This document shows, piece by piece, positions 849-2,876 of a DNA stretch of 2,876 nucleotides. Within the stretch, counting starts at the first letter, position 1, and the number at the start of each line of letters is the position of its first letter. Below the pieces are notes generated by a model. It worked only from the letters and a program-made list of their open reading frames with translations. It made no database searches and was not told the DNA's origin. Source of the DNA: Escherichia coli (GTDB taxonomy: Bacteria > Pseudomonadota > Gammaproteobacteria > Enterobacterales > Enterobacteriaceae); assembly GCF_003334315.1 (NCBI RefSeq), contig NZ_QOWR01000107.1. One strand, given 5' to 3'. Both the position numbers and the translations under genes were made by a program.

Positions 849-1109
849 TTAGGGAAAAATAAGAAAAAAATAATCATCTTCTACATTTGTGTATATTGAT
901 ATATCCACCGCTACGTGCGGAAAAAAATCTGGGAGCCATGTAAAAACTCCATCATTTTCTGGTATTGCCATATAGTTTATGTAATGTTTACTTACAAGAG
1001 ATTCATCTTTGTATAAATAAAGATAAGTAATTACGCATAAAACAACAATGATTATAATAGCAAAAATAAATATTATCATCTTTGATAGATTACTTGAGAT
1101 AGCCAGCAT
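849..1109 (-). CDS. Hypothetical small membrane protein (86 aa, one predicted TM helix); candidate immunity protein for the orphan toxin
   Basis: Seen in sequence: ATG at 1107..1109 overlaps the last 20 nt of the orphan toxin ORF, with an AAGG 9 nt upstream (plus 1119..1122). An alternative in-frame ATG at 1077..1079 lies just past the toxin stop but has no SD. Residues ~11-33 ([23 protein letters not shown]) form a strongly hydrophobic stretch. Position and strand fit the toxin-then-immunity rule of Rhs and CDI loci. The ORF is AT-rich and short, so it could be fortuitous. Confidence 0.45.
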
Positions 1110-1800
1110 CTTGTAAAGCCTTTATCGTTTTTTTATGCTCTGGATTAATATAATCACTACATCTATCTGAGCAATCTGTTGTTGATGGACATGTCAACCC
1201 ATGGTCATTTACAGCCAAGTCTTTTTTATTATCTTCAATCATTTCAGAATGGGATAGCTTTACTTTTCTGCCGTACATACCGAACAGATTTAACCCGTAA
1301 TCTCTAATCTCTTTTTCATAACCCAGCCCTTTCGCCGATCGGCTAACACCAGCGTCATTTAATTTAGACACTCGACAAAATGCCATACAATGGAAAAATT
1401 GATTAGTCCCACCTAAATTTAATCTCTTCATATCTTCATAAGTATCAGATAATATATCCCATGCTCTTTGATGGTTTAGTTGATCTTTTCTTCTTATTAG
1501 CGCTACATCTGCGGGACTTAACCCTAATGGATCAATACCATTCACCGGATTCAGCGGATACGCATACAGACTCCATCCCCCCTCCAGCCCTATCGGGTCC
1601 TGAGTGATATACCGCCCCTGCAACGGATCGTAGTACCGGTTCCGGTTGTAGTACAGCCCCGACTCCTTATCATACTGCTGCCCCGGCAGCCGGTACGGCT
1701 GGTGCAGGTGATGCGGGTTCTCTTCATTCAGCTGGTTGCCCCACTCATCATACTCCCCGCTCCACGCAATGTTTCCATCCGCATCCATCAGCGCCAGCAT
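1090..1800 (-). CDS. ylbH: Orphan Rhs C-terminal module (236 aa): 94 codons of Rhs core homology then a distinct ~142-aa toxin domain; possibly a silent or pseudogene-like stored toxin tip
   Basis: Seen in sequence: translation begins [94 protein letters not shown], i.e. Rhs core tail with DPLGL at 1519..1533. This segment is about 80% identical (by-eye protein comparison, 11 differences in 54 aa) to the core tail of the upstream Rhs gene. The ATG at 1798..1800 overlaps the immunity TAA (1800..1802) and has no obvious SD. The 711-nt size and 1-nt overlap match my recollection of K-12 ylbH (unverified). Confidence 0.8.
1093..1518 (-). other. Orphan toxin domain (~142 aa), unrelated to the main toxin domain; activity unknown
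   Basis: Seen in sequence: AT-rich segment after DPLGL encoding [142 protein letters not shown]. It has five Cys, including HCxxxC and CxxxDCxxxC spacings. No similarity to the main toxin domain is visible. Confidence 0.65.
1519..1800 (-). repeat. Rhs core 3'-end homology block, orphan copy (direct repeat partner of 2715..2876 and of sequence beyond the window)
   Basis: Seen in sequence: 1519..1680 aligns without gaps to 2715..2876 at a constant offset of 1196 nt, with high nucleotide identity (e.g. gggtcctgagtRatataccgcccctgcaacggatcgtagtaccggt shared). 1681..1800 presumably matches core sequence to the right of the window. Confidence 0.85.
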
Positions 1801-2168
1801 TATTTACTATGTAGGAAATTCAAAACACATCCATTTTTCTTATTAATTTCTATAATAAATACACCACCCGCAACTTCATAAGGTAACTTTGCTCCCTCAA
1901 CAACCCAACTATCTGGTAGTTCCGTAATTAAATATGGTTTTTCTTCTTCTGCAATCCGTTCGCCATAGCGATACCTAACATATATTTCAGCTAATTGTAT
2001 CGCCATTGTTTCAGTTTTTACCGTATTTTTAACAGAGTATTTATCTAAATGTAATTTTTCCACATACCTCATAAAAATAATGTTTTCATCAGAACCGTAA
2101 ACAGCTGTCTCATTACAGGCAAATAGTATAAAAAATGAAAGCATCGAAAATATTGAACTATATTTCAT
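1800..2168 (-). CDS. ybbC: Rhs immunity protein (RhsI-type), 122 aa, with N-terminal signal/lipoprotein-like peptide; predicted periplasmic or outer-membrane lipoprotein
   Basis: Seen in sequence: ATG at 2166..2168 is preceded by AAGGAG (plus 2174..2179) with a 5-nt spacer. The N-terminus [18 protein letters not shown] is hydrophobic, with Cys18 in a lipobox-like context followed by Asn at +2. The gene sits 39 nt after the toxin stop on the same strand, the canonical immunity position. Its 369-nt length and 39-nt gap match my recollection of K-12 ybbC downstream of rhsD (not verified by search). Confidence 0.85.
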
Positions 2169-2173
2169 TGAAT

Positions 2174-2179
2174 CTCCTT
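2174..2179 (-). promoter_or_regulatory. Shine-Dalgarno (AAGGAG) for the immunity gene
   Basis: Minus-strand AAGGAG, 5 nt upstream of the ATG at 2166..2168. Confidence 0.7.
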
Positions 2180-2207
2180 ATAGGCCCCACTAATAAAAGC
2201 ACTAAAA

Positions 2208-2876
2208 TTAATCATGATACGGTATGCATACTGAACTCAATCCCGGGACACTATTTCTGATAAAAATATATTCTCCTTTATTATTAAGCGCCTCAAATCG
2301 TCCATCAGGTGTTGCGAGATAAAATGCTTCAAGATTATTATCTTTACTTCTTACAAGATTTTTATCGCTACTTGAAAAAAATTCATCAACATAATCGCCA
2401 TGACTATCTGCACCGTGAGTATGATAAGCAGCAACTCTATCTATACCTGTGGGACATTTTCTTTTCAGAGGATATGACTCCTTTCTTAAATTATCAGTTT
2501 CTGCCTTAGATGCAAAATATTTTCCATTAGTATCTTTACAGACAATACCAGAGTATTCCATATCATTACATAGAGATCTATTCTGCGTTTCTTTCAAAGC
2601 ATCTAACGCAGCATCTGCAGTACTATCAAATTTACTTGGTCCTATTATACGTGAAAGAACACCACAAACTCCCCCCGTACATGCTCCAGATCTGGCATCA
2701 TCCCAAGTCTGCAATAATCCCATAGGGTCAATTTGTTGTAGTGGATTTAAAGGATACTGATATAAATTCCATCCCCCTTTCAACCCCATCGGGTCCTGAG
2801 TAATATACCGCCCCTGCAACGGATCGTAGTACCGGTGACGGTTATAGTACAGCCCTGATTCCTCATCATGCTGCTG
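2208..2876 (-). CDS. rhsD: Rhs-family polymorphic toxin, C-terminal portion only (5' end beyond the right window edge): end of conserved Rhs core plus variable C-terminal toxin domain
   Basis: Seen in sequence: the minus-strand frame is open from the window edge (2876) to a TAA at 2208..2210. The ORF-track start at 2819 is a TTG inside the conserved region, not the true start. Translating 2876 down to 2715 gives [54 protein letters not shown], the hallmark end of the Rhs core (YD-repeat tail with the PxxxxDPxGL motif; DPMGL at 2715..2729). The sequence after it is AT-rich and unrelated to the core. Symbol rests on recalled K-12 locus architecture, not a search; the Rhs call itself is firmer than the symbol. 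Confidence 0.9.
2211..2714 (-). other. Variable C-terminal toxin domain (Rhs-CT, ~168 aa) of the main Rhs protein; activity unknown
   Basis: Seen in sequence: starts immediately after DPMGL and has much lower GC than the core. It contains six Cys and an E...YHTH...FSSSD pattern. I tentatively recall a similar pattern from a Pfam domain of unknown function found at Rhs/YD-repeat C-termini (DUF4329); that is unverified. Established knowledge: Rhs proteins carry their toxin as the segment after the PxxxxDPxGL motif. Confidence 0.75.
2715..2876 (-). repeat. Rhs core 3'-end homology block, main-gene copy (truncated by window edge)
   Basis: Partner of 1519..1680; same evidence. Confidence 0.85.

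Follow-up and report, generated by a model that had tools for sequence, protein, structure and literature searches.

The rhsD-ybbC-ylbH array of Escherichia coli: a toxin, its immunity gene and a probably displaced orphan toxin module

A window of 2876 nt from Escherichia coli (contig NZ_QOWR01000107.1, assembly GCF_003334315.1; 'the window' denotes this whole stretch throughout) carries the 3′ end of rhsD, the small gene ybbC, and ylbH, a second and shorter open reading frame (ORF) that contains the end of the Rhs core and then runs into a different C-terminal tip. The question raised by this locus is how a single site came to hold two toxin tips, and whether the detached one is still a working module in this strain. 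The locus is very probably best explained as an rhsD toxin, its immunity gene and an orphan toxin, in which the orphan was displaced from a full-length gene and its module has since decayed. The rhsD-ybbC-ylbH locus is already known and annotated, and as a representative of a well-described class of systems it is ordinary. What is added here is an explicit link of E. coli ylbH to a published family of serum amyloid A (SAA)-like Lipocone toxins, and of YbbD, encoded by the next gene, to the role of its transmembrane (TM)-anchored partner; to these come the alternation of the two tips at one site across the population, and the private D133N substitution and extra frameshift found in this copy. 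All features described below lie on the minus strand unless stated otherwise.

Layout and genomic identity of the array

A six-frame ORF list contained three co-directional minus-strand ORFs at 2208..2876 (running off the end of the window), 1800..2168 (122 aa) and 1090..1800 (236 aa), as had been described in an earlier note made from the letters of the window alone. The rhsD stop codon is located at 2208–2210 and the ybbC ATG at 2166–2168, and the spacer between the two genes (2169..2207) has the 39 nt that the note had given it; an AAGGAG Shine-Dalgarno sequence can be read within this spacer at 2174..2179. The second core-tail ORF does begin on the immunity gene's stop codon, as claimed: in the sequence TAATG, the ybbC stop (1800–1802) and the ylbH ATG (1798–1800) have one base in common.

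The rhsD fragment opens with the last 54 codons of the conserved Rhs core (2715..2876), cut by the window edge and annotated as rhsD both in a closely related genome (L001) and in K-12 MG1655, while ylbH opens with a 94-codon core tail (1519..1800) that is also delimited by the junction alignment. The hidden Markov model (HMM) TIGR03696 (Rhs_assc_core) matched residues 1–54 of the rhsD fragment (E 1.5e-19) and residues 17–94 of ylbH (E 3.3e-24). Likewise, NF041261 (RHS_core) matched the rhsD fragment at model positions 1208–1261 and ylbH at model positions 1169–1261 (E 2.2e-50). Both core tails reach the last position of this model, 1261, and end in PxxxxDPxGL directly before the variable tip; the core/tip boundaries are 1519 and 2715, exactly those proposed in the earlier note. 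The GC content is 55–61 % in the core tails and 24–40 % in the tips and immunity genes.

The two core tails form the sole long direct repeat of the window, with copy 1 in ylbH (1519–1680) and copy 2 in rhsD (2715–2876). The copies are 162 nt long within the window (~282 nt in full), 80 % identical and spaced 1196 nt apart. Uninterrupted identity extends over 34 bp (1607..1640) in one run and 26 bp in another, which would probably be enough for rare homologous recombination.

The two genes differ in what precedes the shared core tail. The full rhsD ORF, which lies mostly outside the window, is 4281 nt in the closely related genome (99.9 % identical) and in MG1655, and its product has a PAAR-like N-terminus (MSGKPAARQGD…). 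Only the 94 core codons precede the tip in ylbH, which is without a delivery part, and homology to the core starts at the G of its ATG. Because the 'AT' of this codon belongs to the AT-rich ybbC side and the 'G' to the core, the ylbH start codon is a product of the junction, and no Shine-Dalgarno sequence is found before it.

The coordinates given for the array in the earlier note, 1090–2876, were right as far as they went, but the array continues beyond them and the orphan's own immunity gene had been left out. Past ylbH lie ybbD (849..1109, with frameshifted remnants at 620..848), what is left of ylbI (158..253) and one end of an IS3 insertion sequence (1..~122).

The population sample for all megablast counts consisted of 5426 complete E. 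coli genomes. The whole window matches the rhsD-ybbC-ylbH region at 99.9 % identity, with at least 80 % coverage in 1761 of them, and the annotations at the matching regions are rhsD, ybbC, 'RHS repeat-associated core domain-containing protein' and YbbD. The architecture that the earlier note had named was recovered in MG1655, where 123..2876 of the window maps in reverse complement at 99.89 % identity to the rhsD 3′ end, ybbC, ylbH, ybbD and ylbI. The gene order there is rhsD (b0497), ybbC (b0498), ylbH (b0499), ybbD (b0501) and ylbI (b4632), with the last three annotated as pseudogenes. The MG1655 coordinates of ybbC (527581..527949) and ylbH (527949..528659) show an overlap that agrees with that in the window. 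Over 123..2876 the two sequences differ at 751, 1404 and 2443 only. Neither outcome that the earlier note had named as refuting its reading was observed: both translations matched Rhs core HMMs, and the window mapped to the predicted locus.

Toxin tips and their candidate immunity partners

The RhsD tip (2208..2714; 168 aa plus stop) contains six cysteines and matches DUF4329 (Pfam PF14220, E 4.9e-37). This domain has been equated with Tox-JAB-2, defined by the signature E, H[ST]H, S, D, for which nuclease action was suggested and Imm-NTF2-2 listed as an immunity partner noted in E. coli only (Zhang et al. 2012, PMC3482391). In the RhsD tip the signature falls on E54, H99-T100-H101, S115 and D118, all conserved in a small alignment of relatives, in which Y98, H99, T100, H101, G102, S115 and D118 are invariant. 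The following gene, ybbC (1800..2168; annotated under this name in L001 and MG1655), matches Imm-NTF2-2 (Pfam PF15631, E 6.8e-26) and is the candidate immunity gene for this tip. The DUF4329 tip and YbbC evidently travel as a pair, since a 52 % identical tip elsewhere in E. coli (L009) is also followed by a clear YbbC homologue. Residues 1–18 of YbbC (2115..2168) form a hydrophobic, signal-peptide-like segment with a lipobox-like LFAC (…FILFAC); the N-terminus of the paralogue in L009 is likewise hydrophobic. The signal-like start of YbbC and the six cysteines of the tip suggest that this toxin and its partner act outside the cytoplasm.

A word-indexed protein search with both tips returned near-identical E. 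coli fragments only, and a single-sequence search of the RhsD tip against PDB sequences gave no match. Three database 'homologues' of the RhsD tip (P0097–P0099) were discarded as unfit for alignments. They come from read-level assemblies, and their S>F, H>Y and A>V replacements look like C>T damage or error, a pattern unlike real divergence.

The orphan tip of ylbH (1090..1518; 142 aa plus stop) is of a different kind. Taken alone, it gave a weak match to Pfam SAA (E 0.0016–0.005), and a single-sequence search against PDB sequences returned no match, the relationship to SAA structures emerging with a family profile only. An HMMER scan of 1.84 billion representatives yielded 77 relatives of the tip, with the domain C-terminal in almost all; in 10 of 10 longer relatives tested, an Rhs-associated core lies directly upstream. 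The 49-member family profile matched SAA chains in the PDB at E 1.9e-13 to 2e-6, and Pfam SAA (PF00277) is matched by 30 of the 49 members, the best at 2e-26. An AlphaFold2 (AF2) model of the tip has six helices and a predicted local distance difference test score (pLDDT) of 94.7, and its seven best PDB matches in Foldseek are all SAA (probability 1.00; TM-score 0.68–0.75 normalised to the SAA chain).

Within the Lipocone superfamily, a prok-SAA family has been listed among the tips of polymorphic toxins and predicted to cleave or transesterify lipid head groups linked through phosphate (Burroughs, Nicastro & Aravind, eLife 2025, PMC12419801). The ancestral Lipocone active site consists of a His in H2, a Glu in H3, an Asp in H4, a second acidic residue at the end of H3, and an sNxxG motif. 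The immunity partners of prok-SAA tips are TM proteins or lipoproteins, including a supplement entry 'TM+…Imm-SAA'. Lipocone activity had been assayed for TelC and PTDSS only, with TelC/TipC the only assayed toxin/immunity pair. YbbD, ylbH and Escherichia coli are not mentioned in those parts of the text and supplements of PMC12419801 that were searched. The predicted active-site residues H137, E164, D167, D194, N198 and G201 are intact in ylbH and are invariant or at least 90 % conserved in the 49-member alignment. The domain additionally has four invariant cysteines; the ylbH orphan has no signal peptide. On its family profile and modelled fold, the ylbH tip is classed here as a member of the prok-SAA Lipocone family and a predicted lipid head-group enzyme.

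The candidate partner of this tip is ybbD, which in the window is broken. Its 5′ part (849..1109; 86 codons, NF011297 E 4.7e-58) overlaps the end of ylbH by 20 nt and encodes an N-terminal TM helix and the start of the head domain; the 3′ remnant (620..848) is out of frame. In the window, K-12 and O157 the gene is broken at nt 240 of 492 (849..870), where a T8→T7 slip has occurred; the site lies inside low-complexity sequence with nearby lineage single nucleotide polymorphisms. A second slip has occurred in the window, as a private 1-nt deletion in an A/T run at 751, and at a different place in O157. Among the loci compared, the intact allele (163 aa) is that of the NA3664 type (L004) only. 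The N-terminus of the intact protein is strongly hydrophobic (mean Kyte-Doolittle value 3.72 in a 15-residue window).

A search of intact YbbD against the Pfam library gave no match, and the family YbbD_head (PF26610) is on record for a homologue. This homologue is a 173-aa protein, 31 % identical to YbbD (E 1e-15), that follows a toxin homologue 56 % identical to ylbH. A metagenomic ylbH homologue with 49 % identity is followed by a 168-aa protein with marginal similarity only. In all, ybbD stands after the SAA-like tip in the window, in O157-type STEC799 (L003) and in NA3664, and a YbbD_head protein does so in L005–L007. The last three are longer rhs orphan arrays on other genome contigs; that in L005 (1832..6183) contains an Ntox16 fragment, a DUF6714 protein, an SAA-like orphan (P0030), the YbbD_head protein, TseH and Imm58.

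Both tips may thus act outside the cytoplasm, because YbbC starts with a signal- or lipobox-like segment, YbbD is anchored by a TM helix at its N-terminus and cysteines are abundant in both tips.

Tip exchange and probable decay of the orphan module

The two tips are alternatives at the same chromosomal site. Of the 5426 genomes, 1895 carry the module of DUF4329 tip and ybbC, and 2863 that of ylbH tip and ybbD. In STEC799 and NA3664 the site, between ybbP and ylbI/ylbG, is occupied by a single 4197 nt rhs gene, the 1398-aa product of which ends in a ylbH-type tip; ybbD follows, and neither the DUF4329 tip nor ybbC is present. RhsD and the NA3664 Rhs protein are 84–100 % identical per 50-aa block to about residue 1250 and 2–24 % identical thereafter, and the DNA alignment agrees. 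The population data directly show tip swapping at the rhsD site, a clear case, on the scale of the population, of one tip taking the place of another while the chromosomal position stays fixed. The view of the earlier note that orphans are a reservoir of alternative toxins gains a concrete instance here, as the tip that is detached in the window terminates a full-length Rhs at the same site elsewhere.

The history that we propose for the window builds on what is established about Rhs systems (PMC3150448) and on Jackson's 2009 model of C-terminal displacement. A cassette of core tail, DUF4329 tip and ybbC would have recombined into an rhs gene bearing a ylbH-type tip, displacing the older tip, together with its immunity gene, to an orphan position downstream. 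The core-tail repeats would permit rare RecA-dependent deletion, re-fusing the orphan tip to the full-length gene. In strains having a type VI secretion system (T6SS), the toxin would be delivered by PAAR/T6SS and then released by self-cleavage at DPxGL. The RhsD tip would act as a JAB-type metal-dependent hydrolase, and the ylbH-type tip may, by analogy with TelC, attack phosphate-linked lipid head groups such as those of undecaprenyl-linked cell-wall precursors; both would do so outside the cytoplasm.

The window copy of the orphan module shows several signs of decay. Codon 133 of ylbH (1402..1404) is AAT (Asn) in place of GAT (Asp), a change private to the window that sets it apart from K-12 and L001. 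The Asp is located four residues before the active-site His (GxDxxFH) and is present in 48 of 48 other aligned family members, in K-12, L001, STEC799 and NA3664, and at the aligned position of SAA itself (GADKYFH/GSDKYFH). The D133N allele was found in 0 of the 5426 complete genomes and the wild-type allele in 2831; these counts were made with 55-nt megablast queries centred on the variant, the 27-nt flanks of which cannot seed a 28-nt word, such that only the queried allele is detectable. The substitution counts against activity of the window copy of ylbH, not against homology to SAA, and could be either a natural loss-of-function allele or a sequencing error. Given the two ybbD frameshifts, the D133N substitution and the lack of a Shine-Dalgarno sequence before ylbH, the orphan module in the window strain is most likely a silent, decaying relic, with neutral decay the simplest reading. 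The orphan toxin of the earlier note is accordingly right in its layout, but the gene concerned is annotated as a pseudogene in MG1655 and is substituted at a family-invariant residue here.

Displacement has an alternative of the opposite direction, in which the two-tip array is ancestral and the single-tip loci of O157 and NA3664 are deletion derivatives that arose through the core-tail repeats, activating the orphan. This order of events is possible, though rather unlikely. The identical runs of 34 and 26 bp in the repeats would serve it, and the junction sequences can be read in its favour. The first ~25 nt of the ylbH core tail have about 12 differences from all four full-length cores compared (LALISEDGNTA), and the remainder is largely identical to the O157 gene; codons 2–12 (1765..1797) match no full-length core examined and stand as a short mosaic patch at the junction. 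The O157 Rhs gene, in turn, is rhsD-like for the first ~22 nt past the junction and then identical to ylbH, as is expected of a crossover product. However, two positions further downstream in the O157 gene are rhsD-like again, which indicates a mosaic rather than a clean single crossover. Additionally, NA3664 looks like an older and independent single-tip lineage, as its tip has diverged (95 % DNA identity) and its ybbD is the only intact one. The mosaic of ylbH and O157 could result from displacement that was patched afterwards, or from a deletion running from one repeat to the other, and both displacement and deletion may have occurred.

A second alternative concerns the use of ylbH as it stands. 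By translational coupling to ybbC through TAATG, ylbH might be translated alone and act in the producer cell as a toxin-antitoxin-like module, as is reported for an orphan Rhs of Salmonella (PMC7043789). The 1-nt overlap of the ybbC stop and ylbH start would allow this, and thousands of genomes retain an intact ORF of 236 codons. In a study using genomic systematic evolution of ligands by exponential enrichment (SELEX), rhsD-ybbC-ylbH is given as a single operon that has an H-NS-associated promoter region ahead of rhsD and RpoD binding sites near ylbH/ybbD (PMC3946193). A promoter and terminator scan of the window found no terminator between ybbC and ylbH; the scan was otherwise uninformative, with 11 promoter and 2 terminator sites against the 10.0 and 1.7 expected by shuffling. 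Nevertheless, the ATG of ylbH is a by-product of the junction that lacks a Shine-Dalgarno sequence, and MG1655 annotates the gene as a pseudogene. The orphan has no signal peptide, whereas the invariant cysteines of the domain and the TM anchor of its partner both suggest that it acts outside the cytoplasm. Viable strains exist, moreover, in which ybbD is frameshifted. Action of ylbH within the producer cell is consequently improbable.

A third alternative, that the layout is an accident of random ORFs or of a faulty assembly, with no toxin/immunity array behind it, is refuted by strong HMM matches on every gene of the array (Rhs, DUF4329 and Imm-NTF2-2 among them), by megablast recovery of the same arrangement at 99.9 % identity in 1761 complete genomes and by the recurrence of both toxin/immunity pairings in diverged loci.

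Several points nonetheless weigh against a displaced and decayed array as set out above. The mosaic patch at ylbH codons 2–12, together with an O157 gene that is rhsD-like there and ylbH-like downstream, also fits deletion between repeats. The D133N substitution and the extra ybbD frameshift could both be sequencing errors. O157-type strains carry the SAA-like tip on a full-length gene although their ybbD is frameshifted, and YbbD may thus be dispensable or its 86-aa form sufficient. K-12 is not known to have a T6SS, so that delivery would be moot in the K-12 lineage. The RhsD tip could be modelled on a 4-sequence alignment only poorly (AF2, pLDDT 55.6), and Foldseek with this model gave no match at E<0.1, so that a JAB/MPN (deaminase-like α+β) fold is only putative on so shallow an alignment. 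Among the weak Foldseek alignments of this model, the longest involve MPN-fold proteins (NPL4, proteasome lid subunits and EMC8). Finally, no published activity or immunity assay was found in the literature for the RhsD tip, YbbC, the ylbH tip or YbbD. The description of the toxin domains as functionally uncharacterised in the earlier note holds to this extent; computational classes do exist for both (Tox-JAB-2/Imm-NTF2-2, PMC3482391; prok-SAA, PMC12419801).

In STEC799 (L003, 7230..11667) the full-length Rhs has an SAA-like tip with the conserved Asp intact, and the adjacent ybbD encodes 86 aa only; either the truncated YbbD remains protective, or kin cells are not attacked with this toxin.

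Beyond the displaced and decayed array itself, a more speculative proposal can be made about the ylbH-type tip. Where intact, it might be an enzymatically active bacterial homologue of SAA that kills in the periplasm, by cutting head groups linked to undecaprenyl or to phospholipids, and that is blocked by the membrane-anchored YbbD, with D133N a loss-of-function variant that marks the Asp before the catalytic His as essential. We hold this proposal tentatively, as one that may well prove wrong. If true, it would provide a genetically tractable system native to E. coli for testing the catalysis proposed for the SAA family. An SAA homologue whose predicted active site is intact, beside a candidate immunity protein in E. 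coli, would in any case be a convenient pair with which to test the lipid-head-group hydrolase hypothesis proposed for the SAA/Lipocone family.

Flanking features and comparison with known systems

The array is bounded by the end of an IS3 element on the plus strand (1..122). Its transposase coding sequence ends at 92 according to the annotation of L001, and homology to K-12 begins at 123. In the closest genomes (e.g. L001) the element lies between ylbG and ylbI, and it is absent from the site in MG1655, STEC799 and NA3664. On the array side of this IS3 end lies ylbI (158..253), a dead 32-codon fragment of an rhs 5′ end. The ylbI peptide, which begins ISGKPAARQGDM…, is PAAR-like and identical to RhsD residues 1–32 at 28 of 32 positions, the ATG having become ATT; the fragment is all that remains of the beginning of another rhs gene behind the array. 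The PADLOC defence models had no match among the four proteins, and no Rfam family matched within the window at the gathering threshold.

The MG1655 locus shares with the window the gene order and orientation, the 39 nt spacer, the TAATG overlap and the T8→T7 frameshift of ybbD. Unlike the window, it runs on to ylbG where the window has the IS3 end; the window, for its part, is set apart by 1404 (ylbH D133N), 751 (the extra ybbD frameshift) and 2443.

With the Tox-JAB-2/Imm-NTF2-2 pair (PMC3482391) the locus shares the DUF4329 match and signature of the RhsD tip, and YbbC belongs to the listed partner family. It differs in the probable site of action, as the start of YbbC and the six cysteines of the tip point to an extracytoplasmic target and the published suggestion is of a nuclease. 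Extracytoplasmic neutralisation of a DUF4329 toxin sits uneasily with that suggestion.

The likeness of the ylbH tip to prok-SAA (PMC12419801) extends from sequence and fold homology to SAA, with the H2 His, H3 Glu/Asp and H4 Asp…N..G, to its position after an Rhs core and its pairing with a TM-anchored protein. It departs from the published description in that YbbD does not have the four conserved cysteines described for one immunity type, and in that the conserved D that precedes the His by four residues is N in the window copy of ylbH. Vertebrate SAA (PDB 4ip8, 4q5g, 6pxz and 7zh7) has the same GxDxxFH and …E/D…DxxANxxG motifs. However, it is a secreted acute-phase apolipoprotein, whereas the bacterial domain is a toxin tip, distinguished by four invariant cysteines and by a further two helices at its C-terminus.

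Main rhs genes accompanied by orphan rhs-CT/rhsI modules have been described for rhsC of Dickeya dadantii 3937 and for Yersinia pseudotuberculosis (Poole et al. 2011, PMC3150448), a paper in which the model of C-terminal displacement is credited to Jackson 2009. Likewise, main and orphan rhs are described for Salmonella Typhimurium, where the orphan is reported to act in the producer cell in a toxin-antitoxin-like manner (PMC7043789). The rhs loci of these two reports have the same PxxxxDPxGL core, variable tip, small immunity ORF and detached module of core tail, tip and immunity gene as the window, and their orphan tips are, as here, found fused to full-length genes in other strains. The window locus differs from those of Dickeya, Yersinia and Salmonella in that its orphan immunity gene is frameshifted and its orphan is substituted at an invariant residue.

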